Below, in pieces: positions 33,557 through 59,813 of a stretch of 64,000 nucleotides of DNA. The DNA lies in NCBI GenBank assembly GCA_958295725.1, contig OY282368.1, forward strand, positions 1,282,124-1,346,123, in the 5' to 3' direction. The stretch's first letter is position 1. Each line of letters begins with the position of its first letter. The position numbers were made by a program, and so were the translations under genes. The notes beneath the pieces were generated by a model, which had not been told where the DNA came from, made no database searches, and saw only the letters and a list, made by a program, of their open reading frames with translations. The DNA is from an uncultured Alphaproteobacteria bacterium. Its GTDB lineage: Bacteria > Pseudomonadota > Alphaproteobacteria > UBA2966.

Positions 33557-33833
33557 GGCTGCTCCTCTCGCGGGTCGGGACGGCATGGTGTAGACGGGAA
33601 TCCCGAAATCTTCAACGCCGTCCCGATCTACAATTCATATAACAAACAAAATGAATGTTGTAATACTTTGATTGAAATGAATTTTTGAACTCACAACACC
33701 GACCCCGCGATCCGGGACTCGATCGCTTCCCATTGCCTGTCTCCGCCCGGAGATCGCCGATGTCTGGATTGGCGTCGACGGGGCGAGACCGGGGCCGCGG
33801 GAGCGCGCGCGGGCCGCAGCCGTCGCCTTCCGG

Positions 33834-34169
33834 TCACGAGTCCGGCGCTCGGGACTCGTCGAGGCGGACGTATATCTTCCCGTTCTCGACCTTGGTGGCG
33901 TAGGTGTCGAGGGCGACGGACACCGGCGCGCCCTTGGGCTTGCCGGTGGGGATGTGGAACCGCCCCTGATGGACCGGACACTCGATGATGTCGTCGATCA
34001 CGACCCCTTCCGACAGGAAGGCGAAGGCGTGGGTGCAGATGTTCTCGGTGGCGTAGAACTTTCCCTTCACGTTGTAGACGGCGACGGCGGTGCCCGCCAC
34101 GTCGACGCCGATCACGTCCTCTTCCTCGATATCGTCGGTCGACGCGACCAAGCGCCACTCTCCGGCCAT
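33834..34169 (-). CDS. Rieske [2Fe-2S] ferredoxin
   Basis: CTH...CPVHQG Rieske ligand boxes. 111 aa. Confidence 0.8.
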   Translation of the reverse strand: MAGEWRLVASTDDIEEEDVIGVDVAGTAVAVYNVKGKFYATENICTHAFAFLSEGVVIDDIIECPVHQGRFHIPTGKPKGAPVSVALDTYATKVENGKIYVRLDESRAPDS

Positions 34170-34206
34170 GCAACGGGTCTCCTGTCGTCCGTGGACGGAC
34201 GTCAGT

Positions 34207-35214
34207 TCAGAGGGATTGGACGATGCGGAATCGGAATTTCCGTTCCAGGTGGTGACGTAGCACGTCCCGCTGGACCGCCCAGTACCCCTTGTCGACGGGG
34301 TTCATTTCGTGACCCACCTCGGCATGGAGCGCGGGCAGGGCGTGGAACGGAACGGACGGCGCCAGATGATGCTCGCAGTGATAGGGCATGTTCCAGCACA
34401 GGAACCGGGTCAGGGGACCGGTCCTCACGGTGCGGGCGTAGGTCCGGAGATCGAGCTTCCCTTCCGTGCAGCCGGTATGGTCGGCGATACGGATGGCCCG
34501 CGCCACGGGTACGCCGATGACCGTGGGGATAGCCCAGTAGATGGCGACGGCCCACGTCCCGAGAGCGACGCTGACGGCGGCGAGGCCGACGTAGATCGCC
34601 AGCATGACACGGGCTTCGAGGAAAATTCTGGGGAGCTGGTCCTCGGGCACGAACTGGCGGTTGAACGGGCGGATACGGCCCATGGAATGGCGCAGGATCC
34701 AGCCGATGTTCTTGATCCAGAGCTGGGTGGCCGTGACGTAGTACACGTAGTCCATCCACGACGAGGGGCTCGGCAGGACCAACTCCGGGTCCTTGCCGAA
34801 TTCCTGGGCATGGGTGTGATGGCCGGTATGGTCGTAGCGGAAATACGTCGGCGGCCACAGGATCATGATGCCCGTGATCCAATGCACGGTCTCGTTGAGC
34901 CAGCGGGTGCGGAAGGCGGTACCGTGGCTGCACTCGTGCATCGGCGCGAACAGATGCCCCAGCATGACGCCGTGCAGAAGCATCGCCGGGATCAGCCATC
35001 CCGTCCCCGTGGCCAGATACACCAGGTATCCGGTGCCGAGGACGATCGACATGTGTCCGCCGAAATAGATCAGGCCGTGGCGATCGGTGCGCTTGGTGAA
35101 GGGCTTGAGCCGCTCGCGCGAGACGATCTCCCGCTGCGCAGCCAGGAGCTTCGCGTTGGCCTCGGGGCTGGTCAGTTTTCGGGTCCGGAGGTCGTCGACG
35201 GCTACGGCTTCCAA
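34207..35214 (-). CDS. Membrane fatty-acid desaturase/hydroxylase family protein (three His boxes)
   Basis: His boxes HECSH, HTGHHTH, HCEHH. Multiple TM segments. Confidence 0.75.
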   Translation of the reverse strand: MEAVAVDDLRTRKLTSPEANAKLLAAQREIVSRERLKPFTKRTDRHGLIYFGGHMSIVLGTGYLVYLATGTGWLIPAMLLHGVMLGHLFAPMHECSHGTAFRTRWLNETVHWITGIMILWPPTYFRYDHTGHHTHAQEFGKDPELVLPSPSSWMDYVYYVTATQLWIKNIGWILRHSMGRIRPFNRQFVPEDQLPRIFLEARVMLAIYVGLAAVSVALGTWAVAIYWAIPTVIGVPVARAIRIADHTGCTEGKLDLRTYARTVRTGPLTRFLCWNMPYHCEHHLAPSVPFHALPALHAEVGHEMNPVDKGYWAVQRDVLRHHLERKFRFRIVQSL

Positions 35215-35390
35215 TGTCGCACCCTTTCGCTAAACTCCCGCTGGAGCGGTTCGGGAGAACATTGCCGAATCTAGCAGCGGCGCTCCGTACCCGCAAGCGA
35301 TCGCGGATCCGCGATCGAAGGCGCGGGTCGCGTCTCGTCCGAACCGGTCCGGGCGTCGCGACGATGCGAAAATCATGTCTCGGGGAGGCG

Positions 35391-36992
35391 ATGAAACAGA
35401 TGTCAGCACCGAATTTCCTTTTCATTCAGGCCGATCAGATGGCGGCGCCGGTTCTTCCGGTCTACGGCCACCCGCTGGTCAAGGCGCCGTATCTGGAAGG
35501 TCTGGCGCGCGACGGGGTCGTCTTCGAGAACGCCTACTGCAACAACCCGATCTGCGCGTCGTCCCGTTTCTCGATGATGGCGGGTCAGCTTCCCTCGCGC
35601 ATCGGCGCCTATGACAACGCGGCGGAGTTTCCCGCGACCGTGCCGACCTTCGCCCATTACCTGCGGGCGCTCGGCTACGCGACGTGCCTGAGCGGCAAGA
35701 TGCACTTCGTCGGTCCGGACCAGCTCCACGGCTTCGAGGAGCGGCTGACCACCGATATCTATCCGTCCGATTTCGGCTGGACGCCCGACTGGTCCAGGGG
35801 CGACAGGCAATTGCCGCCGTCGGGCATGAGCATGCGCAGCGTCGTCGAGGCCGGCCTCTGCCGGCGCAGCCTGCAGATCGACTACGACGAGGACGTCGGC
35901 TTCCAGGCGGTGCGGAGGATCTACGACTACGCGCGCGACCCGGACGGCAAGCCGTTCTTCCTCGCGGCGTCGTTCACGCATCCGCACAACCCGTTCACGA
36001 TCACGCCGGAGTTCTGGAATCTCTACGACCACGACGATATCGACCTGCCCAGGTATCCCGGCAAGCCGGTCGAGGAGCGCGATCCCTGGAGCCGGCGCTA
36101 CCACTACCTGATCCGCCAGGACGAGCACGAGGTCGCCGACGAACACCTGCGCAACGCGCGGCATGCCTACTACGGGATGGTGAGCTATGTCGACAGCCAC
36201 GTGGGCCGGCTGCTCGACGCGTTGGAAGCCACGGGTCTCGCCGACAACACGGTCGTGATCTTCACCGCGGACCACGGCGAAATGATGGGCGAGCGCGGCA
36301 TGTGGTACAAGTTCAACCCCTTCGAATGGTCCGTGCGCGTGCCGTTGATCGTGCGCGCGCCGGGGAACGCCAAGGGGCGGCGCGAGGCGAAGTCGGTCTC
36401 GCTCGTCGACCTGCTGCCGACGTTGCTCGACCTCGCCACGGACGGCGGCCCGCCCGATCTCGTGGAACCCGTCGACGGACGCACATGGTCCGGAATGCTC
36501 CACGGCCCGGACGAGTCGCGCCCCGACGAAGCCATGATCGAGTTCACCGCCGAGGGCGCCATCGCGCCTTGCCTGATCCTGCGCAAGGGTCCCTACAAGT
36601 ACGTCTACAGCGAGCCCGATCCCGGCATGATGTTCAACGTCGAGACCGACCCGGGAGAGCAGGAGAACCTCTGTGGTGATCCCGCGCACAAGGACGTCGA
36701 GGACGAACTGCTGGCGGACATCCTCGGCCGGTGGGATCCGCGGCGCATCGAGGAAGACATCCTGGAAAGCCAGCGGCGGCGTCTCTTCATCCAGGACGTG
36801 CTGACGAGCGGCCGGCCTACCCCGTGGGACTATCAGCCGATGCGCGATGCCTCGCGGCAATACCTGCGGTCGGGCGGCAGCCCGACGATGGTCAAGGGTC
36901 TCGCGCGTTTCCCCTACATGGAGCCGGTGCCCCCGGACTTCCCGCGGCCCGACGCCGTTCGACCCGCGCGGGAAAAGGAGGCGCGATCATGA
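35391..36992 (+). CDS. Choline-sulfatase-like (BetC family) sulfatase with an atypical active-site motif
   Basis: Strong BetC-like blocks (YDNAAEF...GKMHFVGPDQLHGFEERLTTDIYPSDFGWTPDW). The motif reads C-A-S-S-R (35553..35567) instead of the canonical C-x-P-x-R. RBS GGGGAGG. An alternative start at 35364 exists. Confidence 0.8.
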   Translation: MKQMSAPNFLFIQADQMAAPVLPVYGHPLVKAPYLEGLARDGVVFENAYCNNPICASSRFSMMAGQLPSRIGAYDNAAEFPATVPTFAHYLRALGYATCLSGKMHFVGPDQLHGFEERLTTDIYPSDFGWTPDWSRGDRQLPPSGMSMRSVVEAGLCRRSLQIDYDEDVGFQAVRRIYDYARDPDGKPFFLAASFTHPHNPFTITPEFWNLYDHDDIDLPRYPGKPVEERDPWSRRYHYLIRQDEHEVADEHLRNARHAYYGMVSYVDSHVGRLLDALEATGLADNTVVIFTADHGEMMGERGMWYKFNPFEWSVRVPLIVRAPGNAKGRREAKSVSLVDLLPTLLDLATDGGPPDLVEPVDGRTWSGMLHGPDESRPDEAMIEFTAEGAIAPCLILRKGPYKYVYSEPDPGMMFNVETDPGEQENLCGDPAHKDVEDELLADILGRWDPRRIEEDILESQRRRLFIQDVLTSGRPTPWDYQPMRDASRQYLRSGGSPTMVKGLARFPYMEPVPPDFPRPDAVRPAREKEARS

Positions 36993-37059
36993 CCCGTATG
37001 GCCGGACGTCGACGCGGCCTGTCTGGACACTCGGACAGATCGGGGAACAGGACGCGCCT

Positions 37060-38010
37060 TCACGAGCCGGGCCGGGGCGGCCGGGAAGCGCCAGGGCGGG
37101 GCAGCACCGTCGAGACGCCGCCGACGAGCAGGAAGAGGGCGACAACCTCGACCCAACCCAACGGCTCGTCGAGAACGACGGCGCCCGATACGAGGCCCAC
37201 CGCCGGAATCGCCAGCGTCGACAGCGAGGCGACCCAGACCGGCACGAGTTGCAGGATCTTGAAGTAGAGCCAGTGGGCGAGCGCGATGCCGACGACGATG
37301 ACGTAGGCCGTGGCGAGCAAGACCTCCCACGTCGTGCCGCGCAGGTCCTGGAACTGGACGGCCCCGGCGACGATGACGGGCAGACCGCCGATCAACGCCT
37401 GCCAGCCCACGACCGCCGTGGCCGAGACCTGCCAGCGCACCCGTTTCACGACGATGGAGGACAGCGCCCAGAACACGGCGCCGCCGCTCATGACCGCGAG
37501 GCCGAGCCAGCCCCGATAGGTCGCCTCGAGGTCGCGCGCGGCCAGCAGCGCGATGGCGCCGAGGCCGAGAGCGAGGCCGAGCCACTTGCCGGGGGTGGGC
37601 CGCTCACCCAGGAACAGCGTTCCGATCAGGAACACGTAGAGCGGCATGGTATAGGCGGCGATCGCGGTGTGGCCCGAGGTCGTGAGCCGGACGGCGAGCG
37701 CGGAACAGATGAACCACACGGTCATGTTGCAGAAGCCCACGACGCCGACGCCTATCCAGTTGTCGCGCGGCATCCGCAGACGTTCCCGGTTGGCGGCCGC
37801 GATGGTCAGCATGAGGACGCCCACGCTGAGCACGCAGATCGCCCGGAACGGGAGCAGGGGCAGGCCCATCGACGCGATCTTGAGAATCGGCCAGTTGACG
37901 CCCCATGCCAAGGTCAGCAGCCCCAGCAACAGGAGGCCGCGGGTCGGAAGGCGCGTCGGTTCCGGCGCCGGGTCGGGGCCGTCCAGATGTCGGCCTGTCG
38001 CGTCCGTCAT
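37060..38010 (-). CDS. EamA/DMT-family transporter
   Basis: 10-TM protein with two EamA-like halves. Confidence 0.7.
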   Translation of the reverse strand: MTDATGRHLDGPDPAPEPTRLPTRGLLLLGLLTLAWGVNWPILKIASMGLPLLPFRAICVLSVGVLMLTIAAANRERLRMPRDNWIGVGVVGFCNMTVWFICSALAVRLTTSGHTAIAAYTMPLYVFLIGTLFLGERPTPGKWLGLALGLGAIALLAARDLEATYRGWLGLAVMSGGAVFWALSSIVVKRVRWQVSATAVVGWQALIGGLPVIVAGAVQFQDLRGTTWEVLLATAYVIVVGIALAHWLYFKILQLVPVWVASLSTLAIPAVGLVSGAVVLDEPLGWVEVVALFLLVGGVSTVLPRPGASRPPRPGS

Positions 38011-38111
38011 GGTTCGCGCAGCTACGGGGAACGGTCGGCGCCGCGGCCGGATCCCGACAGCGTCGAGGCGAAGGCGAGGGAGGCTCTCCCCATTCGCGTC
38101 CGGCGGCGGCT

Positions 38112-39338
<1,227 letters not shown>

Positions 39339-39423
39339 GGTTTCCCGTTATTCCCTTGCGATCCGGCGGGGGACGGAGGCGATCGTTCCAGTCTTCCGCC
39401 TCGATTATACACCACGTCGAAAG

Positions 39424-39917
39424 GCGCGGCGTCCGCACAATCCGCACACCCTCCGGGGGTCGAACCCGGCGTGGCGTCCGCACAATCCGCACACCCTTCG
39501 GGGGTCGAGCCCGGCGTGGCGATCCGCACAATCCGCACACTCTCCGGGGGTCGAACCCGGCGTGGCGATCCGCACAATCCGCACACCCTTCGAGGGTCGA
39601 ACCCGGCGCGGCGATCCGCACGATCCGCACACTCTCCGGGGGTCGAACCCGGCGCGGCAATCCGCACGATCCGCACACTCTCCGGGGGTCGAGCCCGGCG
39701 CGGCGATCCGCACGATCCGCACACTCTCCGGGGGTCGAACCCGGCGCGGCGATCCGCACGATCCGCACACCCTCCGGGGGTCGAGCCCGGCGCGGCGATC
39801 CGCACGATCCGCACACCCTTCGCGGGTCGAGCCCGGCGCGGCGATCCGCACGATCCGCACACTCTCCGGGGGTCGAACCCGGCGCGGCGATCCGCACAAT
39901 CCGCACACCGTCGGGCC
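39424..39917. repeat. Tandem array of about 11 direct repeats of a 45-46-bp unit (no spacers)
   Basis: Unit (G)ATCCGCACAATCCGCACA-CCCTCCGGGGGTCGAACCCGG-CGTGGC. It contains an internal ATCCGCACA duplication and the palindrome CCGGG-GGTCGAA-CCCGG. Variant positions are caatcc/cgatcc, ccctcc/cccttc/actctc, gaaccc/gagccc and gcgtgg/gcgcgg. Confidence 0.9.
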
Positions 39918-39961
39918 GCATATTCCCGGAGCGCCAACCCGGCGCGCGACGGATTTTGACC

Positions 39962-41350
39962 TGTCGAGAACATTTTGAGTTGACCGGATTATGTACCAAA
40001 TGGATTGACCGCTTCTGTTGGGGTTGTTGGCCCTGTGGGGAAGTGGTCAGGCGCGGGGCGGCTGTCCACTTGTCCACAGGGCGCCGGCGGGTTGCGTCGA
40101 AGCGGGTCACGCGGCCTTGCGGGTTTGGGTTTCGAGCGGGGTTCCGTCGGCTTGGTAGTGAGCGAGGCGCCTGGGTCCGTGGAAGACGGCGAGGGTGTCG
40201 TCGGGGTACTCGTGCACCCGGACCTTGACCTTGACGTAGTGGTGGCGATGTCGCCCGGCGGGGATCTGCAGGCTGCGTCCCTTGTAGCGCACGGTGTTGT
40301 CGCCTGACACGGTGCGGTCCTCCTGGACGCAGAGGATGTCTTCCAAGGCGCCGGCGAAGGGCACGAAGGCCGAACCCTCGGCCTCGGGCGGGGTCGCGAA
40401 GCGTCTGTTGTGGTCCGGCAGGTAGACCTCCTCGAGGAAGCGGTTGGCCTCGGCCATGTCGGTGATGCCGGCGAGCCTGAGTTCCTGGGGCAGGCGCTTC
40501 TGCACGGTGGCGAACATGCGCTCCGAGCGCCCCCTGGCCTCGGGCGAGTAGGCGGCGATGTGCTCGATGCCGAGTTGGTGAAGCGCGCGACCGACCTGGG
40601 TCGGAGTGTCCTTGTCCACCTTGCCGCCGGCCTCGGGGGTGCGCCAGTAGTGGCTGCCGCGGTCGGTGTAGAGCGAACAGAACAGTCCGCGCTCGCGGAT
40701 CACCTCGCGGAGCGCCCGGAAGCTCGACATGGTGCCCTCCTCGGTGACGAAGAAGGCCGAGTAGACCTCGCTGGTGGCGTCGTCCAGGGTGACGATCAGG
40801 TCCCACTCCCGACCGGGTGCCCACTCATGGCGCGAGCCGTCCTGATGCAGCATCATGCCGGGCAGTGCCCGGCGCGGCCGCTTGCGCCGGTGGGCGCCGC
40901 GCCGGGGCGCCGCGCGCCTGCGGCCATGAGCCTGCAAGGTCAGCCGAACCCAGTTGTAGCTGCGCTTGATGCCGTGCGCGGTGACCAGCTTCTCGTGAAA
41001 ATGCTTGGCGTTGAAGTCCCAGTAGCGGGTGTCGAACAACGCCAGAACCCGCGCCACCTCGTCCACGCCGGCGCGGCGCGCCGAGACCCGGCCCAGACGG
41101 CGGTCGTACAACCCCTCCGCCCCCTCCGCCTCGTAGCGGTCGCGCCAGCGCCGGAAGGTCCGTTCCGAAACACCCAGAACCTCCGCCGCCTCGCCTTGGC
41201 TCAACACACCCCGATGGGTGCGACCGTAAACCTCCTCGAACTTCATCAATCTCAGTCCCTGTCGCTGCTCCGTCCGACGCATCCAGTCCCTCCTTGGCCT
41301 GAATACGTTCTAAAACCGGACAGATCAGTTGGTACATAATCCGGTCATAT
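39962..41350 (-). mobile_element. Insertion sequence (ISNCY/IS481-like) with about 38-bp imperfect terminal inverted repeats
   Basis: IRL TGTCGAGAACATTTTGAGTTGACCGGATTATGTACCAA (39962..). IRR reverse complement GCTGTCGTTAACAGAGGATATGACCGGATTATGTACCAA (..41361). Flanked by the direct repeat GACGGATTTTGACC (39948-39961 and 41364-41377). Confidence 0.75.
40107..41282 (-). CDS. DDE transposase (rve/integrase-core; ISNCY/IS481-like)
   Basis: 391 aa. N-terminal HTH (LSQGEAAEVLGVSERTFRRWRDRYEAEG) and an integrase-core segment with a YTDRGSHY-type motif. Confidence 0.8.
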   Translation of the reverse strand: MRRTEQRQGLRLMKFEEVYGRTHRGVLSQGEAAEVLGVSERTFRRWRDRYEAEGAEGLYDRRLGRVSARRAGVDEVARVLALFDTRYWDFNAKHFHEKLVTAHGIKRSYNWVRLTLQAHGRRRAAPRRGAHRRKRPRRALPGMMLHQDGSRHEWAPGREWDLIVTLDDATSEVYSAFFVTEEGTMSSFRALREVIRERGLFCSLYTDRGSHYWRTPEAGGKVDKDTPTQVGRALHQLGIEHIAAYSPEARGRSERMFATVQKRLPQELRLAGITDMAEANRFLEEVYLPDHNRRFATPPEAEGSAFVPFAGALEDILCVQEDRTVSGDNTVRYKGRSLQIPAGRHRHHYVKVKVRVHEYPDDTLAVFHGPRRLAHYQADGTPLETQTRKAA

Positions 41351-41375
41351 CCTCTGTTAACGACAGCGACGGATT

Positions 41376-41405
41376 TTGACCTTGCGGCGTCGTTCGTGGT
41401 AGGAT
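41376..41405 (+). promoter_or_regulatory. Candidate sigma70-type promoter of SLP gene copy 1 (TTGACC-N18-TAGGAT)
   Basis: The same element with TAGGGT as the -10 is present at 56531-56560 upstream of copy 2. Its position just upstream of the 13-bp repeat tract would put the repeats in the 5' UTR. Confidence 0.3.
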
Positions 41406-41419
41406 AAGGTTGCGAACTT

Positions 41420-41549
41420 CACGGGGCCTCTTCACGGGGCCTCTTCACGGGGCCTCTTCACGGGGCCTCTTCACGGGGCCTCTTCACGGGGCCTCTTCAC
41501 GGGGCCTCTTCACGGGGCCTCTTCACGGGGCCTCTTCACGGGGCCTCTT
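41420..41549 (+). repeat. Simple sequence repeat (CACGGGGCCTCTT)x10 between the putative promoter and the RBS of the SLP gene
   Basis: Exactly 10 perfect 13-bp units. The RBS GGAGG lies 9 nt after the tract and the ATG is at 41573. Confidence 0.9.
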
Positions 41550-41572
41550 CAGGAAGCGGAGGTCCTGTTCCG

Positions 41573-42904
41573 ATGTTCTTCAGCAGTGCTCGTGGATTCG
41601 TCTTGTCGGCGGTGGCGTGCGCCCTCGTTCTCATTCTCTCCGGCTGCGGCGGCGGCGGGAGCAGCAGCGGCACCGCGCCTCCTCCGGGACGGTCGATGGC
41701 GCAACTCGATCCCGAGCCGACGCCGGCACCAACGCCAACGCCGGAGCCGACGCCGCCGGAGACGCTGAGTAATGCGCTGGCTGTTGAAACGATACAGCCG
41801 GGTGCCGTGCTGGGGATCGAGAAGGCCATCGGCGCCGAACCAAAGGCCAGCAGCAGCACGCTGTCTAGCATCACACAGTCTTCGAATACGGACGCTGATG
41901 GTGTCACGACCGACCAAGTGGAGATATTCGCGGAGTACGGAGCCACCACACCCCGTTTTTCGGTGACAAACGGAGCCGAATGGGCCATCGGCATGGATGA
42001 AGGAAATCCCATGGCGATACAGGGCTTCGACCAATCTTGGAAAGGTGCTCAGTTGATCAACACTCATCTCTCCCATATCTCCGGGGGCACCTTGTACGTC
42101 GATGCCTACACGAACATCGAGGCGCCGACGACGGAGAATGTGCCGGGACCTTCCCAAATAGTAAGGAGAGGTGATACAGTAGGCGGTGTCTTCTTTTCCA
42201 TACCGTCCTCCGGAACTCTGAACGGCGAAGATGGCGAGTTTGAGTGTGGCTCTTCTACATGTTCTTTCAACTACCGGCGGGACTTCTCCGGCCGCGGCCC
42301 CGTTACCGATATCTCAGGGACCGTCTTATTCACCCCAGCCTCTACAACGCGCACAGACACCGACTATCTGGCCGGTGGGGTCTGGCTGTTCGTTCCCGAC
42401 ACTGCGTCAAGCACCGACGACTACGTATTCGGCGTCTTTGCGCGCGGCGAGGATCCTTTCAATCAAGGGCGGATCATGGCTCTAACCGGCAGCGCGACGT
42501 ATATGGGGGGCGCCACCGGGAAATATTCGCAAAAGGATGGTAGTTCGACCACCATCGGATCCTTCGAGGCCGACGTTAGCCTGACGGCCAGCTTTGGTGC
42601 TGCCGACAGCCTTGGTACGATCAGCGGTACGATCACCGATTTCGAATTGGACGGTGAGGCGACCGCGGGCAGCTTGACCTTGGGAGAGGCCGCTATCGGC
42701 TCCGCCAACAGCGGCTTCTTCAAGGGTGCGGTGGGCGGCTCGGATGGCTCCCGCACATACGCTGGCAAGTGGGGTGGCCAGTTCTTCGGCAACGGGGCGG
42801 CCAGTACCGACCATCCGGGATCGGTTGCCGGGACGTTCGGCGCACAGTCCACGGACGAGGCTGTGAACTACATCGGCTTTTTCGGCGCGGACCGGGAGCA
42901 GTAA
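41573..42904 (+). CDS. Surface lipoprotein with TbpB/fHbp-like C-terminal beta-barrel (putative Slam/T11SS cargo), copy 1
   Basis: Lipobox LILSGC followed by a Gly/Ser/Pro-rich linker. Handle-domain-like motifs (ATYMGGATGKY, FEADVSLTASFG...LGTISGTI). C-terminal barrel signature YAGKWGGQFFGNGA...GSVAGTFGA...YIGFFGADREQ. Confidence 0.65.
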   Translation: MFFSSARGFVLSAVACALVLILSGCGGGGSSSGTAPPPGRSMAQLDPEPTPAPTPTPEPTPPETLSNALAVETIQPGAVLGIEKAIGAEPKASSSTLSSITQSSNTDADGVTTDQVEIFAEYGATTPRFSVTNGAEWAIGMDEGNPMAIQGFDQSWKGAQLINTHLSHISGGTLYVDAYTNIEAPTTENVPGPSQIVRRGDTVGGVFFSIPSSGTLNGEDGEFECGSSTCSFNYRRDFSGRGPVTDISGTVLFTPASTTRTDTDYLAGGVWLFVPDTASSTDDYVFGVFARGEDPFNQGRIMALTGSATYMGGATGKYSQKDGSSTTIGSFEADVSLTASFGAADSLGTISGTITDFELDGEATAGSLTLGEAAIGSANSGFFKGAVGGSDGSRTYAGKWGGQFFGNGAASTDHPGSVAGTFGAQSTDEAVNYIGFFGADREQ

Positions 42905-42971
42905 CGCGATATCCAATCTCGCAACCCCGAACGGGAGAAGGGCGGCCCCGCGGCTGCCCTTCTTTTTCTCC

Positions 42972-44327
42972 ATGATGACGATGAAGTGGATCTGCGCCCT
43001 CGCCGTCGCCGTTCTGGTCCACGCTTCGGCGCTCGCCGCTTCCGACCGTTCCCATCTGTCCTCCGACCCCCGGGTCAACGACGCCCGGACACTCATCGAA
43101 AGCGGCCGCTTCGCCGAGGCGCTGGACGTCCTGCGCCCGCTGGCGCCGGACCATCCGGACCGGACGGACGTCCTCTTCCTCCTCGGTCTGGCCGCCGTCG
43201 AGGCCTCCCGGCGGGCCGACACCGGGGAAGCGGAACGGACCGTCCTGCTCGACGAGGCCATCGCCGCGCTCCGCGCCATCCTGATCGATCGGCCGGGTCT
43301 CGTGCGCGTGCGCCTGGAGCTGGCGCGGGCGTTCTTCCTCAAGCGCGAGGACGACCTCTCGCGCGAGCATTTCGAGCGCGTGCTGGCCGGCGGGCCGTCG
43401 CCGGCGATGGTCGCCAACATCCGCCGTTATCTGGCGGAAATGCGGGAGCGCCGGCGTTGGAGCGCCTGGTTCGGCGCGGCGCTGGCGCCGGACAGCAATC
43501 TCAACACGGCCTCGGACTCGGACGTCATCTACATCCGCGGCCTGCCGTTCCGCCGCGGGGCGGACGCGGGCCCCCGCTCGGGGGTGGGCGCCATCCTCTG
43601 GACGGGCGGCGAATACCAGCACCCCCTCGGCCAGCGCCTGCGCCTGCGCGCGGGCGCCGACCTCGCTCGCCGGGAGTATGCCGGAAGCGGCTTCGATCGG
43701 ACCTTTCTGTCCGGGCACGTCGGGCCGCGCTGGCTGGCGGACGCGAAGACCGAGGCGAGCCTGCTCGCCAGCGCCCGGCGCAGCTGGAGAGCCGGGGCGC
43801 CGGAGAGCCATGACCTCGGCGCCCGTCTGGAGGGCGAGCGCCGCTTCTCCCGACGCGTGACGGCGAGCGCGCGAACCTCCCTGCACTGGCGCGAATACCG
43901 GAGCGACCGACGCCTCGACGGGCCGGTTTTCGATCTCTCCCTGGGCGCCGCATGGCTCGCGACGCCGACCGTGCGGTTCGACGCGACGCTCGGCTATGCG
44001 CGTGAACGTCCGGGGCGAACGGTCTGGCGCAATACCAGCCGATGGGCGCGGGCCGGTTTCTCCATGGCGCTGCCGCTGGGCTTCACCGTCGGCGTCGGCG
44101 GTGAGTTGCGCCGGACAAGGTACGAGGGCCGGTCGCCGTACACGCTCGGCGGCGCGTCCCGCGAGGACCGGGTCCGGGTGCTGCGGATCTCGACGTTCAA
44201 TCGGGTCTTCACCCTGTACGGATACAGTCCGCGGCTCGTGCTGGCGAACGAGGCGCGCGACTCCAACGCGCAATTGCACGACTACAAGCGCAATCGCGCC
44301 GAATTGCGATTCGTGCGGCAGTTCTAG
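42972..44327 (+). CDS. Slam (surface lipoprotein assembly modulator)/DUF560 outer-membrane protein, type XI secretion, copy 1
   Basis: Signal peptide. N-terminal TPR-like periplasmic region. DUF560 onset motif RWSAWFGAALAPDSNLN. An alternating beta-strand-rich C-terminal half ending in the aromatic residue (RFVRQF) typical of OM barrels. Confidence 0.7.
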   Translation: MMTMKWICALAVAVLVHASALAASDRSHLSSDPRVNDARTLIESGRFAEALDVLRPLAPDHPDRTDVLFLLGLAAVEASRRADTGEAERTVLLDEAIAALRAILIDRPGLVRVRLELARAFFLKREDDLSREHFERVLAGGPSPAMVANIRRYLAEMRERRRWSAWFGAALAPDSNLNTASDSDVIYIRGLPFRRGADAGPRSGVGAILWTGGEYQHPLGQRLRLRAGADLARREYAGSGFDRTFLSGHVGPRWLADAKTEASLLASARRSWRAGAPESHDLGARLEGERRFSRRVTASARTSLHWREYRSDRRLDGPVFDLSLGAAWLATPTVRFDATLGYARERPGRTVWRNTSRWARAGFSMALPLGFTVGVGGELRRTRYEGRSPYTLGGASREDRVRVLRISTFNRVFTLYGYSPRLVLANEARDSNAQLHDYKRNRAELRFVRQF

Positions 44328-44520
44328 GCTCAGGATTCATAACCGGACCTGCTCATCCGCACGACTCGTCCAGCGACGGGAGTGCCGATCATGGACTTCA
44401 TCGCCGTCGGGTCCATCCATACTCCCCCCTGAAAGGGGGAGGAGTGGCGCACCGGACATTGCCGTCTTGACGATTCCGGTGTCGCGCGGGTGGAATCGCC
44501 GTGGGGTCTCGCTCCCGGTC

Positions 44521-44555
44521 CCCGGCGTGGCGATCCGCACAATCCGCACACCGTC
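44521..44555. repeat. Solitary copy of the terminal variant of the 45-bp repeat unit
   Basis: CCCGGCGTGGCGATCCGCACAATCCGCACACCGTCGG. It matches the last unit of the array at 39424-39917, including the ...CCGTCGG ending. Confidence 0.85.
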
Positions 44556-44973
44556 GGACCCTGCGAGCGTTCCAGATAAAACCACTATATGTCGTATTTC
44601 CTGTGTCATGAATATCGATATATGGTATCGTCGAGGGGGTTATCGAAACGATCCTCGCCGAGTCGCGGGACTATGGCCCCCTCCCGACTTCCTCCCTGAC
44701 CAAGGGGGAGAAGTATGAACGGATCCGGCGGATGAACCCCGGCTCGGCACTCCACCGACCGCGCGGCCGACGAGTTCCCAACGTCCCGCATGTAGCGAAC
44801 CAGGACATGCAATGGACAAATACACCGAGTTGGTGCTATCGATCGGACGCTGAAGGGAAGGGAGGCCCGATAGTCCCGGAAATCGCGAATCCGGCGGCGG
44901 TCGTGCGAACCGCCGCCCGGGAACCCGAACCCGACGCCGGAACGTGGCTACCGAAGATTCAAGGAGTACCCTC

Positions 44974-45699
44974 ATGACGGAGACGACCACCCTCGCATCC
45001 CAGGCGGAGTCGCTGACGTCGCTGCTGGGGTTGTCCGACCCCCCGCTCGCCATCACGTTCTCGTCCGAGGCGCCGGACGGCGTGAAACGTTTCGACGCCG
45101 CGATGCCGGAGCCGACGCCGGACGGTCGGACGGGCCGGGTCGCCGCGAGCTGCGTGTTCTGGATCAAGGCTCGCGATCGGACATTCACGACGGTGGCGGA
45201 GGACCACGGCAATTGCAGCGTCGGTTCGCTGACCCACGGGTTCAAGACCTTGGAGGAGGCGGCGGCCGGCGCCGACGTAGCGGCGCTGGTCGAGTCGGAG
45301 TGGGTGACGCCCGACGTGTTCCCGCACATCCCGACGGTGAACGAGAAGCCCGGGTTCGTCACCTACGGCCCCCTCGCCGAATCCCCGGCCGCCCCGGACG
45401 TCGTGTTCCTCCGGCTGAACGGCAAGCAGGCCATGATGCTGCATGACGCCTGGCCCGACCTTCGCGTCGAGGGTAAGCCCCAGTGCCACATAATCCCCAT
45501 CGCCAAGGAGGGCGGCGAGGTCGCGGTGAGCGTCGGCTGCATGTTGAGCCGCGTTCGCACGGGCATGAGCAACAACGAGGTCACGTGCGCCATTCCGACG
45601 ACCAGGCTGGGCGAGCTCCTCGAGCGTCTCGAGACGGCGAACGCCGCCGACATGAAGGTGGCGGCCTACGCCGCGGCGGACGCCAAACGTTTCGCATAG
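44974..45699 (+). CDS. DUF169 (COG2043, ArCR-type) domain protein
   Basis: About 240 aa. Conserved Cys/His pattern (ASCVFW...HGNCSVG...CHIIPIA...VGCMLSR). RBS AAGGAG. Confidence 0.5.
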   Translation: MTETTTLASQAESLTSLLGLSDPPLAITFSSEAPDGVKRFDAAMPEPTPDGRTGRVAASCVFWIKARDRTFTTVAEDHGNCSVGSLTHGFKTLEEAAAGADVAALVESEWVTPDVFPHIPTVNEKPGFVTYGPLAESPAAPDVVFLRLNGKQAMMLHDAWPDLRVEGKPQCHIIPIAKEGGEVAVSVGCMLSRVRTGMSNNEVTCAIPTTRLGELLERLETANAADMKVAAYAAADAKRFA

Positions 45700-54579: not shown

Positions 54580-54882
54580 CTACGGAAGCAGCTTGAGCAA
54601 GGCGAAGGTCAAGCCGGCGTTGGCGAGCACGATGCCGACGGCAATCCCGACGAACCGGACGGTCACGCGGGTTTCGAGGGCGGCAAGGTCGGCTTTCGTC
54701 GCCATCTTGTCCTCGATGTGTTCGATCTTGTCTTCAAGGTGGGCGATGTCGGTCTTGGCGGCGACGCCTCCGGTGATGGCGTCGCGAACCGTCGCCACGA
54801 CGCTTTCGGCCTGGCGTTCGTCGAACCCGGCTTCCCGGAGCGCCTTGGCGGCGGCGCAGGTGTCGAAGGCGGTAGCGGTCAT
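54580..54882 (-). CDS. DUF1640-like small coiled-coil/TM protein, tandem paralogue 1 of 5
   Basis: N-terminal MTATAFDTCAAAKALREAGFDERQAE, a central coiled coil, and C-terminal TM GIAVGIVLANAGLTFALLKLLP. Confidence 0.5.
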   Translation of the reverse strand: MTATAFDTCAAAKALREAGFDERQAESVVATVRDAITGGVAAKTDIAHLEDKIEHIEDKMATKADLAALETRVTVRFVGIAVGIVLANAGLTFALLKLLP

Positions 54883-54909
54883 GCGGCGGTTCCCCCGGTC
54901 GGGCGCGGC

Positions 54910-55173
54910 CTACGGAAGCAGCTTGAGCAAGGCGAAGGTCAAGCCGGCGTTGGCGAGAACGATGCCGACGGCAATCCCGACGAACCGGACGGTCATGCGG
55001 GTTTCGAGGGCGGCAATCTCGATCCTGAGGTCAGCTTTGGTCGCCAGTTCGTTCCGGTCGGCGGCAGTGGCGTCGCGCATGACGGCGACGGCGGCTTCGG
55101 CCTGGCGTTCGTCGAACCCGGCTTCCCGAAGGGTCTTGGCGGCGGCGCAGGTGTCGAAGGCGGTAGCGGTCAT
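54910..55173 (-). CDS. DUF1640-like small coiled-coil/TM protein, tandem paralogue 2 of 5
   Basis: Same N- and C-terminal modules with a different central segment. Start trimmed to MTATAF. Confidence 0.5.
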   Translation of the reverse strand: MTATAFDTCAAAKTLREAGFDERQAEAAVAVMRDATAADRNELATKADLRIEIAALETRMTVRFVGIAVGIVLANAGLTFALLKLLP

Positions 55174-55199
55174 GCGGCGGTTCCCCGGTCGGGCGCGGC

Positions 55200-55451
55200 C
55201 TACGGAAGCAGCTTGATGAGCGCGACGACGGCGGCGACGATGGCTCCGGCCTGCATCCACGAGGCGCGGTACATCCGCGCTTCGAGAGCGGCAATCTCGA
55301 TCCTGAGGTCAGCTTTGGTCGCCAGTTCGTTCCGGTCGGCGGCAGTGGCGTCGCGCATGACGGCGACGGCGGCTTCGGCCTGGCGTTCGTCGAACCCGGC
55401 TTCCCGAAGGGTCTTGGCGGCGGCGTAGGTGTCGAAGGCAGTGGCGGTCAT
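55200..55451 (-). CDS. DUF1640-like small coiled-coil/TM protein, tandem paralogue 3 of 5
   Basis: Same N-terminus. The C-terminal TM has diverged (WMQAGAIVAAVVALIKLLP). Confidence 0.5.
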   Translation of the reverse strand: MTATAFDTYAAAKTLREAGFDERQAEAAVAVMRDATAADRNELATKADLRIEIAALEARMYRASWMQAGAIVAAVVALIKLLP

Positions 55452-55506
55452 GCGGCGGTTCCCCGGTCGGGCGCGGCCTACGGAAGCAGCTTGAGGGCGG
55501 CGCCGA

Positions 55507-55758
55507 TCAAGCCGCCGGCGGAAGCAGCTTGAGCAAGGCGAAGGTCAAGCCGGCGTTGGCGAACACGATCCCGATAGCGACCTTGAGCATGTCGGCCTTG
55601 AGATCGGCGAGATCGGCCTTGTCGGCCTTGGTGGCCATCTTGTCTTCAAGGCGGGCGATGTCGGTCTTGGTGGCGACGCCTTCGGCCTGGCGTTCGTCGA
55701 ACCCGGCTTCCCGGAGCGCCTTGGCGGCGGCGCAGGTGTCGAAGGCGGTGGCGGTCAT
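55507..55758 (-). CDS. DUF1640-like small coiled-coil/TM protein, tandem paralogue 4 of 5
   Basis: Same N-terminus and a shortened central region. A 3' duplication scar (LKLLPPAA plus a vestigial repeat at 55490-55520). Confidence 0.45.
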   Translation of the reverse strand: MTATAFDTCAAAKALREAGFDERQAEGVATKTDIARLEDKMATKADKADLADLKADMLKVAIGIVFANAGLTFALLKLLPPAA

Positions 55759-55784
55759 GCGGCGGTTCCCCGGTCGGGCGCGGC

Positions 55785-56024
55785 CTACGGAAGCAGCTTG
55801 AGCAAGCCGACGATGAGCACGGCCTGTCCGGCGGCGACGGCGAAGACGAAGCGGACCAGCCGGGTTTCGAGGTTGGCGAGATCGGCCTTCGTCGCCAGCG
55901 TGTCCCGCTCGGCGGCAGTGGCGTCGCGCATGACGGCGACGGCGGCTTCGGCCTGGCGTTCGTCGAACCCGGCTTCCCGAAGAGTCTTGGCGGCGGCGTA
56001 AGTGTCGAAGGCGGTGGCGGGCAT
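55785..56024 (-). CDS. DUF1640-like small coiled-coil/TM protein, tandem paralogue 5 of 5
   Basis: MPATAFDTYAAAKTLREAGFDERQAE... The track ORF extends to 56090, and the start is uncertain. Confidence 0.45.
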   Translation of the reverse strand: MPATAFDTYAAAKTLREAGFDERQAEAAVAVMRDATAAERDTLATKADLANLETRLVRFVFAVAAGQAVLIVGLLKLLP

Positions 56025-56186
56025 GAAGCGATCATGGGCCATCACGGGTCCTTGCGCAAGTTCCGCACGGTCCCGCAACATCCCGTCCATGCCCGTTTCA
56101 GATTGTTGGCGAAATTGGGGGTGTAATCCGATGTCCAGAAGAAATATCGCATTTTTCTGTGGATTTCAGGACATTTAGCGGCGGAT

Positions 56187-56230
56187 TCCCAATCCGCAGG
56201 CCGGAGGTTCGAATCCCTCCGGGGTCGCCA
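56187..56230 (+). other. tRNA-Gly(CCC)-like 3' fragment (anticodon arm, imperfect T-arm, acceptor 3' strand plus CCA) lacking a 5' half
   Basis: GCGGA-TTCCCAA-TCCGC stem-loop with anticodon CCC. GGTTCGAATCC T-loop. ...GGGGTCGCCA at the end. The upstream 30 nt cannot form the D-arm or acceptor 5' strand. Confidence 0.35.
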
Positions 56231-56574
56231 AGCCTCTCCTTCCAGAAACCCTGGAGAAACAGCGACTTTCACGGAACGAGGCCAAAGAAATTGGCTCGAT
56301 TGGCGAATCGCAGGCATGTCCCGGCCGTGGCGGTCGGACATGGCAGCCTCTCCTATATCCGGGGAACCTGAACCACATGCCGCTCGAATACTGAATGCCG
56401 CTTACAGGTCCTGAGCCTGGCGACACACGACCGCACCGGGCACTCGACGGACATACCCCTGCCGAGTACCTTCACTCGCTCACAGCCAATGAGACCCCAT
56501 CGTCTCATATATCCTGAACCAGGACGAATTTTGACCTTGCGGCGTCGTTCGTGGTAGGGTAGGGTTGCGAACTT

Positions 56575-56605
56575 CACGGGGCCTCTTATCTTCACGGGGC
56601 CTCTT
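56575..56605 (+). repeat. Two copies of the CACGGGGCCTCTT unit (separated by ATCTT) upstream of SLP gene copy 2
   Basis: Same promoter-proximal context as 41420-41549, but 2 units rather than 10. Confidence 0.85.
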
Positions 56606-56628
56606 ATTAAGAAACAGAGAGGTTCCGA

Positions 56629-58164
56629 ATGTCTATCAACGGTACGAGTGGATTCGTCTTGTCGGCGGCGGCGTGCGCGATCGTGCTGTCCGGCTGCGGC
56701 GGCGGCGGCGGCGGCTCGTCGCCGGCGAAAGAGATCGCGGATTTGGCCGAAGGCGGCCGTCTACAGATCATGAAAGCCGCCGGGAACGACCCCGCGCCGA
56801 GCGGCAGCGTGATGCAATCCTCGAATGCGACGGACGGCGTGACGAAGGACAGCATCGGCGTCATGGCAAAGCACGAGAACGGGCAGGTGACGTTCGCCGT
56901 AGACTACGACGACGGCTCCGGGGGAGACCCCGAGATAACGATGGGCACGGCGGACGACCTGCGCGCGAGGTTCTCCGGCGACGTCATTTGCGAACAGTGC
57001 GACGCCAAGCCGTTCAGCGGCAACGCCAGGTGGAACGGCGCCGAACTGCGAAAGTCGTACGGGGACGGAACGTTGTGGGTCGATGTCTACACGGATATCG
57101 AGAAACCGACGACGGAGACGGTGACGACCGGCGGCGACGCTCCTCAAACCGGCGATGGCACCCGGGATGTTCCTACCGGGACGCGGATATCGTTTACGCA
57201 ATTCATCGGAGGCCGCGTCGACATCGATAGGCCAGGTGGGTTTAGCACTCTTGGGACACTGGATGGCGCTATGGGTACGTTCACGTGCCCGTCGAGTTGT
57301 GTTGTCAGTAACCACATCGTGGCAGGGGGGAGTTGGACCTTCACCCCCACCCGGCCGCCGGGAGCCCTTGACGTTCTAAGCAACGCGGCCGGCGTCGTCC
57401 TTACAGGGAACTTCGATGAGACTCGAACTGACGGCACCTTCAACGGCGCGGCGGGATACTTCAAATGCCTGTCCCGGTTGACGGGAAGTTGCGGTCGTGG
57501 CGTATCGAACGGCCGCACTACGCTCAGTGGCGAGTGGGTATTCATTCCCACCACCCCCACGCCAGCAGGTACGACGACGACACGCACCGTACAGGATGCC
57601 GACTATCTGGCCGGCGGAGTCTGGTTGTACGTTCCGGAGAGCGGCGACGCTTATCAGTTCGGCGCCTTCGTAGACGGCGGCCAGCCCTTTCTCCAGAGCC
57701 GTATCGAGGGCCTGACGGGCACCGCGAAGTATGCAGGAGACGCGACCGGTATCTACGTGGAAAAGGAATCCTCCACCGCCGCCGCCGAGATCGGATATTT
57801 CGACGCGGAGGTGACGTTGACGGCCGACTTCGGCACGAATGCCGAGCTGGGAACGATCCGTGGAGTCATCGATAACTTCGTCGAGGAGTCGACCGACGAG
57901 GCCATTGTCGGGGATCCGGAGGTGACGCTGCGGCAGGCTGACATCGGGTCCGCGGACAGCGGTTTCTTCAAGGGCAAGACGACGGCAACCCTCTCCGGCA
58001 GAGAGTTCACCGGCAAATGGGGTGGCCAGTTCTACGGCAACGGCGCCACCGCCACCGCCCACCCCGGTTCCGTCGCCGGCACGTTCGGCGGCGCGGCGCC
58101 GGAGAACGCCGACGACGGTTACGAAGCCTCGTTCGTAGGGGCGTACGGGGCCTACAAACAGTAA
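56629..58164 (+). CDS. Surface lipoprotein with TbpB/fHbp-like C-terminal beta-barrel (putative Slam/T11SS cargo), copy 2
   Basis: Lipobox VLSGC plus a Gly-rich linker. Its central region differs from copy 1. Conserved handle motifs (AKYAGDATGIY, FDAEVTLTADFG...LGTIRGVI) and C-terminal barrel (FTGKWGGQFYGNGA...GSVAGTFGG...FVGAYGAYKQ). Confidence 0.65.
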   Translation: MSINGTSGFVLSAAACAIVLSGCGGGGGGSSPAKEIADLAEGGRLQIMKAAGNDPAPSGSVMQSSNATDGVTKDSIGVMAKHENGQVTFAVDYDDGSGGDPEITMGTADDLRARFSGDVICEQCDAKPFSGNARWNGAELRKSYGDGTLWVDVYTDIEKPTTETVTTGGDAPQTGDGTRDVPTGTRISFTQFIGGRVDIDRPGGFSTLGTLDGAMGTFTCPSSCVVSNHIVAGGSWTFTPTRPPGALDVLSNAAGVVLTGNFDETRTDGTFNGAAGYFKCLSRLTGSCGRGVSNGRTTLSGEWVFIPTTPTPAGTTTTRTVQDADYLAGGVWLYVPESGDAYQFGAFVDGGQPFLQSRIEGLTGTAKYAGDATGIYVEKESSTAAAEIGYFDAEVTLTADFGTNAELGTIRGVIDNFVEESTDEAIVGDPEVTLRQADIGSADSGFFKGKTTATLSGREFTGKWGGQFYGNGATATAHPGSVAGTFGGAAPENADDGYEASFVGAYGAYKQ

Positions 58165-58204
58165 CGCCGCAGGCCGTCCCGAAACGGAAAGAAGGCATCG
58201 CGAG

Positions 58205-59578
58205 ATGCCTTCTTTTTCGTTCGCGCCCCGGCTGTTCGGCGCGCTCGCCGCCGTCCTGTTCCTTCTCCCGGTCCTCGCGACCGTCGCGGCTTCCGACCGT
58301 TCCCACCTGTCCTCCGACCCCCGGGTCAACGACGCCCGGACACTCATCGAAAGCGGCCGCTTCGCCGAGGCGCTGGACGTCCTGCGCCCGCTGGCGCCGG
58401 ACCATCCGGACCGGACGGACGTCCTCTTCCTCCTCGGTCTGGCCGCCGTCGAGGCCTCCCGGCGGGCCGACACCGGGGAAGCGGAACGAACCGTCCTGCT
58501 CGACGAGGCCATCGCCGCGCTCCGCGCCATCCTGATCGATCGGCCGGGTCTCGTGCGCGTGCGCCTGGAGCTGGCGCGGGCGTTCTTCCTCAAGCGCGAG
58601 GACGACCTCTCGCGCGAGCATTTCGAGCGCGTGCTGGCCGGCGGGCCGTCGCCGGCGATGGTCGCCAACATCCGCCGTTATCTGGCGGAAATGCGGGAGC
58701 GCCGGCGTTGGAGCGCCTGGTTCGGCGCGGCGCTGGCGCCGGACAGCAATCTCAACACGGCCTCGGACTCGGACGTCATCTACATCCGCGGTCTGCCGTT
58801 CCGCCGCGGGGCGGACGCGGGCCCCCGCTCGGGGGTGGGCGCCATCCTCTGGACGGGCGGCGAATACCAGCACCCCCTCGGCCAGCGCCTGCGCCTGCGC
58901 GCGGGCGCCGACCTCGCTCGCCGGGAGTATGCCGGAAGCGGCTTCGATCGGACCTTTCTGTCCGGGCACGTCGGGCCGCGCTGGCTGGCGGACGCGAAGA
59001 CCGAGGCGAGCCTGCTCGCCAGCGCCCGGCGCAGCTGGAGAGCCGGGGCGCCGGAGAGCCATGACCTCGGCGCCCGTCTGGAGGGCGAGCGCCGCTTCTC
59101 CCGACGCGTGACGGCGAGCGCGCGAACCTCCCTGCACTGGCGCGAATACCGGAGCGACCGACGCCTCGACGGGCCGGTTTTCGATCTCTCCCTGGGCGCC
59201 GCATGGCTCGCGACGCCGACCGTGCGGTTCGATGCGACGCTCGGCTATGCGCGTGAACGCCCGGGGCGAACGGTCTGGCGCAATACCAGCCGATGGGCGC
59301 GGGCCGGTTTCTCCATGGCGCTGCCGCTGGGCTTCACCGTCGGCGTCGGCGGTGAATTGCGCCGGACAGGGTACGAGGGCCGGTCGCCGTACACGCTCGG
59401 CGGCGCGTCCCGCGAGGACCGGGTCCGGGTGCTGCGGATCTCGACGTTCAATCGGGTCTTCACCCTGTACGGATACAGTCCGCGGCTCGTGCTGGCGAAC
59501 GAGGCGCGCGACTCCAACGCGCAACTGCACGACTACAAGCGCAACCGCGCCGAATTGCGATTCGTGCGGCAGTTCTAG
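58205..59578 (+). CDS. Slam/DUF560 outer-membrane protein, type XI secretion, copy 2
   Basis: Mature region essentially identical to copy 1. Only the signal peptide and a few residues differ. Confidence 0.7.
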   Translation: MPSFSFAPRLFGALAAVLFLLPVLATVAASDRSHLSSDPRVNDARTLIESGRFAEALDVLRPLAPDHPDRTDVLFLLGLAAVEASRRADTGEAERTVLLDEAIAALRAILIDRPGLVRVRLELARAFFLKREDDLSREHFERVLAGGPSPAMVANIRRYLAEMRERRRWSAWFGAALAPDSNLNTASDSDVIYIRGLPFRRGADAGPRSGVGAILWTGGEYQHPLGQRLRLRAGADLARREYAGSGFDRTFLSGHVGPRWLADAKTEASLLASARRSWRAGAPESHDLGARLEGERRFSRRVTASARTSLHWREYRSDRRLDGPVFDLSLGAAWLATPTVRFDATLGYARERPGRTVWRNTSRWARAGFSMALPLGFTVGVGGELRRTGYEGRSPYTLGGASREDRVRVLRISTFNRVFTLYGYSPRLVLANEARDSNAQLHDYKRNRAELRFVRQF

Positions 59579-59813
59579 GCTCAGGACTCATAACCGGACC
59601 TGCTCATCCGCAAGACTCGTCCAGCGACGGGAGTGCCGATCATGGACTTCATCGCCGTCGGGTCCATCCATACTCCCCCCCTGAAAGGGGAAGAAGTGGC
59701 GCACCGGACATTGCCGTCTTGACGATTCCGGTGTCGCGCGGGTGGAATCGCCGTGGGGTCTCGCTCCCGGTCCCCGATGCGGCGACCCGGCGGGAGGCCG
59801 GAAGGAGGGACGG

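Follow-up and report, generated by a model that had tools for sequence, protein, structure and literature searches.

In the 64-kb window examined here (the whole stretch of DNA analysed, taken from contig OY282368.1 of an uncultured alphaproteobacterium and not to be confused with the array; all coordinates are window coordinates unless a contig is named), a tandem array of 46-bp units separates an acyl-CoA dehydrogenase gene, gcdH-like, from an insertion sequence (IS). Beyond the IS lie the genes for a candidate surface lipoprotein and a surface lipoprotein assembly modifier (Slam). We think that the array is probably one locus of a lineage-specific, dispersed, non-coding minisatellite, or variable-number tandem repeat (VNTR), family with 45/46-bp units, whose dynamics would be those of slippage and recombination and whose units may act as portable homology. 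The array and the units derived from it are the following:

39423..39917, plus strand: 46-bp tandem array of ten full units and a cut-off terminal unit, its orientation set by ATCCGCACRATCCGCACAC on the plus strand.
39878..39917, plus strand: terminal junction unit, CCCGGCGCGGCGATCCGCACAATCCGCACACCGTCGGGCC, the left copy of a 40-nt direct repeat (repeat family D4).
44521..44560, plus strand: solo unit, which matches the terminal unit at 95% identity and forms the right-hand copy of the 40-nt direct repeat.

Tandem Repeats Finder (TRF) detected a single array at 39423-39909, with a period of 46, 10.6 copies, 93% matches, 0% indels and a score of 799. Anchoring the units on their double 9-mer gave a count of 11, namely a first unit of 45 nt, nine of 46 nt and a last one that breaks off after ...CCGCACACCGTCGG. 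The repetition is far beyond chance: shuffles predict 0.01 occurrences of the 18-mer ATCCGCACRATCCGCACA in the window at up to 2 mismatches, and 12 were found. The eleven units, the degenerate last one and the variant positions tiling along the array (about seven two- or three-state sites) are as a preliminary description of this DNA had them. The unit lengths of 45 and 46 bp that it gave are also right, but the period is 46 rather than 45. Its internal 9-bp duplication anchors every unit, although the first 9-mer is ATCCGCACG, not ATCCGCACA, in 6 of the 11. All six reading frames are open through the array, as stated there, because the unit has a stop codon in no frame; the explanation offered, that 45 is divisible by 3, does not hold for a period of 46. 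Further copies of CGCACANNNCGCACA were not found elsewhere in the 64-kb window, and a sigma-70 scan found no promoter within the array. The units are contiguous, head-to-tail, without spacers and all in one orientation. CRISPR, which needs unique spacers of similar length between its repeats, was rightly set aside.

Further information about the array was obtained from a second allele. Metagenome contig L001 (ENA ERZ19489113) encodes a GcdH protein identical to that of the window and is 99.35% identical to window positions 33750-39915, but its array at the gcdH locus holds 16.6 units against 10.6 in the window. Written as strings of unit variants, the window array reads ABCD-EF-GHIGJ and that of L001 ABCD-KLMNOPQP-GHIGJ, so that both arrays have the same edges but differ in an internal block, which has been replaced. 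The order of units K, O and P is found again in the array of a different locus (contig L126), and unit variants are common to several loci. Comparison of 61 internal units over six arrays gave 44 distinct variants, built from the same seven or so sites, a pattern that would fit repeated unequal exchange and conversion better than a single recent expansion. A second polymorphic locus lies upstream of one and the same amtB gene, with 12.7 units in contig L136 and 4.1 in contig L137. Tandem units without spacers, a copy number that differs between strains at the same locus and a non-coding nature are what is expected of a minisatellite, and the minisatellite-like structure proposed at the outset is supported by the difference between near-identical strains.

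The array shows neither the fixed copy number nor the conserved reading frame that the preliminary description had named as evidence to the contrary. The two gcdH-locus alleles differ in length by 274 nt, which leaves a remainder of 1 on division by 3, and conservation of a reading frame across the array is thus impossible. Gene callers did call open reading frames (ORFs) over the arrays, which is what could be said for a repetitive protein-coding gene. Against such a gene stand, besides the allele difference, a period that is not a multiple of 3, the six open frames and the nature of its only "homologues": a protein-database search with the array translations matched nothing except other arrays called as ORFs, without any Pfam domain. 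We consider the coding reading, or else that of a tRNA-derived integrase attachment site, which is taken up below, already effectively refuted and hardly credible. The called "proteins" (P0001-P0007, 170-380 aa, derived from both strands) are spurious ORFs without domains, and the arrays can serve as a caution about gene callers that produce such proteins.

Arrays of this kind are present at several loci and in several lineages. In the metagenome that contains L001, three other contigs carry arrays of 11.5 (L126), 9.5 (L127) and 7.5 units (L128), each in a different gene context, which makes four gene contexts in one metagenome. Two more array ORFs, P0004 and P0007, lie on one 3.52-Mb NCBI contig. 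In a complete alphaproteobacterial metagenome-assembled genome (OZ251449.1), locus L072 carries an array with a 45-bp unit in 9.2 copies, which is 84% identical to that of the window and lies upstream of a GntR-family gene; in this genome the double 9-mer is also found within mosaic tandem repeats of 157-217 bp and as solo copies. L136 and L137, from other metagenomes, have arrays with 45/46-bp units, left flanks that are 93% identical and right flanks that are unrelated. Overall, the arrays have 4 to 17 units; at least three lineages carry them, with several loci in each genome. The family is non-coding, hypervariable and dispersed, and its members are found in intergenic DNA on the promoter side of genes and border variable segments. 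The search of relatives for the unit that had been proposed was thus productive, with arrays at other loci and in two other lineages, and its outcome speaks against specificity for gcdH.

Other collections contained little. A scan of a genome collection with the 18-mer gave at least about 110 single chance matches, OZ251449.1 being the sole real family member among the matches listed. Blastn of the array region against plasmid and phage collections gave no match, a pattern scan of the viral contigs in IMG/VR gave single chance matches only, and a scan of JGI metagenomes with TCCGCACACYCTCCGGGGG gave 11 single matches, all by chance and none with an array at the match. Rfam returned nothing relevant, either on the whole window at gathering thresholds or on 39300-45000 at E <= 1.

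Two variants of the arrangement were observed beside these loci. On OZ251449.1 3472001-3480000 (L014, positions 879-3584), a mosaic tandem array with periods of 157-217 bp and more than 15 units contains the double 9-mer and two C-rich/G-rich hairpin modules; a hairpin module of this array is also present in the window at about 44424-44450 and 44683-44715. On L137, two arrays lie in inverted orientation (403-589, 46 bp x 4.1; 2817-2905, x 2.5 of a 35-bp variant with a single motif). The 2.2 kb between them, next to amtB, contain genes for a ParA/CbiA-like ATPase and for three small proteins.

The lineage consensuses agree in the unit core, CGGCGCGGCG-RTCCGCACA-NN-YCGCACAC-CCTYCGGGGG, and vary in the tail of about 8 nt that follows. 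In all four lineages, conservation within the unit is highest in the double CGCACA motif and the bases directly beside it. The T-arm-like palindrome CCGGGGGTCGARCCCGG, on which the preliminary description had put weight, is really there (allowing up to 2 mismatches, the window contains 10, where 0.36 would be expected), but it is not a key feature: it is specific to the lineage of the window, weakened in L072 and absent from L136 and L137. Among the available units, 95% of palindrome cells pair, and not one pair has changed on both sides. An apparent C-G to T-A compensation in one L072 unit, noticed by eye, was lost on alignment. When three units were folded, as had been suggested, they did no better than shuffled sequence (z = +1.37 for plus-strand RNA, -0.63 for minus-strand RNA and +0.95 for plus-strand DNA).

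These results bear on the possibility that the array is transcribed as a repetitive structured RNA, a series of tandem hairpins such as C(UUCG)G or C(UCCG)G tetraloop stems or the CCGGG...CCCGG stem. All lineages retain CCCTTCGGGG / CCCTCCGGGG, changes on one side of the CCGGG/CCCGG stem remain compatible with G-U pairing on the plus strand (13 U-G and 7 G-U cells), and a promoter-like TTGACC-N17-CACGAT precedes the arrays of L126 and L127, where it was read by eye and not detected by the promoter scan. However, the folding energies and the lack of two-sided changes just given speak against it, the 5-bp palindrome is lost in two contigs, Rfam has no match even at the permissive E value, and the promoter-like left flank is missing in the window. 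A structured RNA is thus quite improbable.

The attachment-site reading starts from a tRNA-like 3' fragment at 56157-56230, with an anticodon arm (CCC anticodon) and a T arm, which scores 22.5 bits over 56157-56222 against the Rfam tRNA threshold of 29 bits. This fragment lies about 300 bp upstream of a second lipoprotein cassette and may be the scar of a past integration. The 13-mer that the array was said to share with it shrinks, as an exact match, to the 10-mer CCCTCCGGGG, which occurs in two array units and once outside the array; with 0.61 occurrences expected per window, this is chance level. ARAGORN found no tRNA gene in the window, no Rfam family reaches its gathering score, and no integrase was identified among the window ORFs scanned.

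The genes and modules on both sides of the array, in window order, are the following:

38112..39338, minus strand: acyl-CoA dehydrogenase (gcdH-like) gene, 84 bp from the array.
39339..39422, minus strand: gcdH-array spacer of 84 bp, the same in both alleles; a neighbour, outside the element.
39908..39962, plus strand: first part of flankB (CGTCGGGCCGCATATTCCCGG...GACGGATTTTGACCT), the proximal upstream part of the lipoprotein promoter module, split by the IS (alignment A3).
39961..41367 (approximate), minus strand: insertion sequence of 1.4 kb, with an HTH-domain transposase at 40107..41282.
41368..41572, plus strand: rest of the lipoprotein promoter module (promoter scan, TRF, alignment A3).
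41573..42904, plus strand: surface-lipoprotein candidate SLP1, with a signal peptide, an LSGC lipobox and a Gly-rich linker; no Pfam match.
42972..44327, plus strand: Slam gene (Pfam SlipAM and TPR repeats).
44561..44812, plus strand: flankA, a dispersed non-coding repeat of about 250 bp, after the solo unit and past Slam (alignment A1).

As described initially, the array is upstream of the gcdH start codon (39338) and beside the IS, which begins just to its right. A regulatory element specific to gcdH, that is, an upstream activating or operator array, could be imagined from this closeness and from the ORF through the array, which ends in an ATGA overlap with the gcdH start. The minus strand of the spacer has a perfect TATAAT (39404-39409), 65 nt before the start codon, which may have a promoter role; a consensus promoter scan of the spacer found no full promoter, and a -35 hexamer matching the TATAAT was not found. 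Nevertheless, the arrays of two strains that share an identical GcdH differ in length by 274 bp, and the array is unlikely to control gcdH because the 84 bp beside the gene are unchanged while the array length differs so much. At other loci, arrays of this kind stand beside unrelated genes (a glycosyltransferase gene, a DUF192 gene, amtB and the GntR-family gene), and the architecture ties the window array to the lipoprotein side instead, so that the link to gcdH made in the preliminary description is not supported. Moreover, since the array begins mid-unit on the gcdH side, without the left flank conserved in L126 and L127, the contact with gcdH would be a secondary junction. We infer that the array contributes little or nothing specific to gcdH expression, and a gcdH-specific element is very improbable.

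To the right, the order that is usual in this species, as found in L126 and L127 (in window orientation), is a left flank ending in TTGACCGCCGGTCGGG, the array, flankA, one degenerate unit, flankB, a promoter-like sequence, a 13-bp repeat and a lipoprotein gene, of 911 or 707 aa. The promoter-like sequence is TTGACC-18-TAGGGT in L126, with TGGGGT in place of TAGGGT in L127. The flankB sequence of the window is the same as in these two contigs, where it follows the single degenerate unit; the window array sits at the position of that unit, directly before flankB. The ...CACACCGTCGG ending of the window terminal unit also closes the arrays of L001, L126, L127 and L128, and a variant, ...CACACCATCGG, closes that of L072. 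The IS is flanked by a 15-bp target duplication, GACGGATTTTGACCT, at 39948-39962 and 41368-41382, and is a later insertion, not part of the repeat element. With the IS removed in thought, the array passes directly into the promoter module, which consists of a predicted sigma-70-like promoter (TTGACC at 41376-41381, an 18-nt spacer and TAGGAT at 41400-41405, by promoter scan), the 13-bp repeat and the ribosome-binding region. By its architecture, the window array would thus belong with the lipoprotein-Slam cassette on its right, from which the later IS has parted it. Copies of the IS near other arrays are 100% (L126) and 99.7% (L128) identical, and because of this near-identity we take the IS to be currently active. 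That it belongs to the IS481 family is only guessed, from the length of the duplication and from motifs in the transposase.

All known flanking genes start toward the arrays: on the left gcdH, the glycosyltransferase gene, the DUF192 gene and amtB, and on the right three lipoprotein genes, an AAA_21 ATPase gene and the GntR-family gene. The arrays therefore occupy 5' intergenic regions. FlankA, past Slam in the window, comes after the terminal unit in L126 (8020-7760), L127 (8058-7800) and L128 (4895-4650). The four copies differ at scattered positions only, each follows an array or a solo unit, and they carry an AT-rich stretch (…ATGAATATCGATATATGG…) and a C-rich/G-rich hairpin. Small ORFs in flankA were considered; they are broken by a 1-nt indel in L127, which argues against coding. 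At its start, flankA resembles OZ251449.1 (L072) at the GntR-family gene downstream of the array, both just before this gene and at its 5' end.

A second, paralogous lipoprotein-Slam cassette at 56523-59789 (the counterpart of 41368-44537) has the promoter module, but the array, flankA and the degenerate unit are absent. The homology of the two cassettes stops inside a unit, at 44537 and 59789. The Slam copies (42972..44327 and 58205-59578) encode proteins that are 99.8% identical over residues 25-451, whereas the lipoproteins are 45% identical in their C-terminal halves and have no similarity in their N-terminal parts. This suggests conversion, or a recent duplication of the flanks with the lipoprotein replaced. 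The IS, the lipoprotein gene and the Slam gene lie between the two copies of the 40-nt direct repeat. Crossovers within units can interconvert the window arrangement, that of L126 and L127, and that of the paralogous cassette. Of the regulatory, structural or recombinogenic roles first considered for the array, the one tied to recombination junctions gains from the solo unit and from the unrelated right flanks of L136 and L137; the link to gcdH does not.

A second repeat tract was observed in the same module. Between the predicted lipoprotein promoter and the start codon (41417-41551), the 13-bp sequence CTTCACGGGGCCT is perfectly repeated in tandem, with 10.4 copies in the window, 31.4 in L001 (1225-1632), 7.3 in L126 (7539-7633) and about 3 in L127, where the later ones are 12-bp variants. 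The leader of the paralogous cassette has 2 x 18 bp at 56572-56607. The 13-bp repeat looks like a leader-length repeat that may tune expression.

We hypothesize that the arrays grow, shrink and swap blocks through slipped-strand mispairing, unequal crossing-over and gene conversion between arrays. Units would then provide 40-500 bp of portable homology, that is, crossover points at which lipoprotein (or lipoprotein-Slam) cassettes could be moved, deleted or duplicated, and unit-borne crossovers could have joined lipoprotein cassettes to unrelated neighbours such as gcdH. An effect of the array on the lipoprotein promoter, by spacing or by insulation from the divergent gene, is also conceivable. 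It is tempting to go further and to propose that the units are recombination sites of a surface-lipoprotein cassette shuffling, by which cassettes sharing the promoter module are excised, inserted and exchanged, with their expression tuned by the 2 to 31 copies of the 13-bp leader repeat. Both together would produce phase and antigenic variation of Slam-dependent surface lipoproteins, possibly helped by a protein that recognises the invariant double CGCACA core. To this extended scheme we give only a small chance.

Several observations weigh against the reading of the array as a recombining minisatellite. The crossover role rests on comparing arrangements, a recombination event having not been directly observed, and exact-protein look-ups of the DUF169 and Slam proteins found no contig in which the cassette is precisely deleted between two units. 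In the genome collection, the family may be distributed more widely than the matches listed show. In addition, the core is nearly invariant across lineages, which is unlike the drift of a plain neutral minisatellite and suggests either a sequence-specific function or a recent horizontal spread.

A sequence-specific function could mean that the array is a bank of sites for a DNA-binding protein with the direct heptamer pair CCGCACA-NN-CCGCACA as its target. The array would then be a platform for regulation, would titrate the protein, or would work in the manner of a centromere or of iterons. The conserved double motif with its flanks beside a variable tail speaks for such a protein, and the double 9-mer of OZ251449.1 does recur in mosaic repeats that differ among themselves and in solo copies. 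Likewise, a ParA-like ATPase gene cluster lies between the two inverted arrays of L137 (a contig of 2.9 kb), and the terminal unit is followed by the AT-rich stretch in flankA. However, no candidate for the binding protein and no par or rep gene is consistently adjacent: the neighbours in the window are an acyl-CoA dehydrogenase gene, an IS, a lipoprotein gene and Slam, and no partition or replication-initiator gene is among the ORFs scanned between about 35 and 63 kb. No single-copy site was found elsewhere in the 64 kb, and hence nothing points to a regulon. A period of 46 bp does not keep helical phase, and the copy number varies freely. An origin of replication with DnaA boxes (oriC) or iterons was discarded: the GC skew does not switch at the window array, no rep gene is among the ORFs scanned, and we take the 9-mer of the double motif not to be a DnaA box. 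We therefore regard a bank of binding sites, the main rival reading, as rather unlikely, though worth keeping in mind, and prefer the dispersed minisatellite.

The array fails the tests for CRISPR, REP/BIME, a tRNA-derived attachment site, a structured RNA and a coding repeat. The closest described class, both functionally and structurally, appears to be the MIRU type of dispersed minisatellite. MIRUs are units of 40-100 bp that form tandem arrays at many intergenic loci, with strain-variable copy number and about 40-50 repeats per genome, and are located inside operons, where their small ORFs overlap the stop and start codons of the neighbours (PMC3184786, PMC3635867). The likeness lies in the 45/46-bp units, in at least four loci per genome and in two polymorphic loci. 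The difference lies in the absence of sequence homology, in the position of the present arrays between divergently transcribed genes, and in a period that is not a multiple of 3, with no frame kept between alleles; the ATGA overlap of the window exists, but its frame is shifted in L001.

NIMEs of Neisseria are tied to the recombination of pilin surface-protein genes, and BIMEs are also tied to recombination (PMC3184786). Both these and REP elements are, like the present family, GC-rich hairpin-bearing modules in arrays, and the OZ251449.1 mosaics of 157-217 bp join the double 9-mer with two hairpin modules. The window array, however, is a pure head-to-tail succession of a single unit: a repeat search found no dRS3-like inverted repeats, which in NIMEs bound the units and are of about 20 bp, within or flanking the units. 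From REP/BIME, with which a comparison had been proposed, it differs in that all units are direct rather than alternating, the stem is of 5 bp only and not conserved in relatives, and the location is 5' intergenic rather than 3' or convergent. Among rhizobia, RIME is an intergenic mosaic element of the same general type.

Neisseria REP2 is a promoter-carrying repeat upstream of several genes (PMC3184786). REP2 and promoter-bearing Correia elements may be compared with the portable promoter and leader module that unrelated surface-protein genes (SLP1 and SLP2 of the window, and those of L126 and L127) have in common; here, however, the promoter is predicted and the module also bears two tandem-repeat tracts, the 46-bp one upstream and the 13-bp one in the leader.

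Centromere- or iteron-type arrays such as sopC of plasmid F (12 x 43 bp) and incA of P1 offer another parallel. Like them, the window array has about a dozen tandem units of some 45 bp, each with a short conserved motif. Unlike them, it has no adjacent par or rep gene among the ORFs scanned in the window, belongs to several chromosomal loci, has a direct and not an inverted heptamer pair, and is unconstrained in copy number.

By itself, the array is an ordinary kind of element. As a family, it is an undescribed dispersed minisatellite of a poorly known alphaproteobacterial lineage, and its loci are ready markers for strain typing. Of greater interest is the portable upstream module, with two hypervariable repeat tracts, that is common to at least four divergent surface-lipoprotein genes, two of which pair with nearly identical Slam genes. 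If the repeats do drive cassette exchange or expression switching, Slam-lipoprotein biology resembling phase variation would extend beyond the host-adapted Neisseria, Moraxella and Haemophilus.

Apart from these repeats, TRF reported a hit with a period of 278 bp at 54805-56025. It is explained by five tandem paralogous small genes (83-116 aa) on the minus strand at 54580-56090; the two of them that were scanned gave sub-threshold Pfam matches of the CCDC90-like (DUF1640-like) type.

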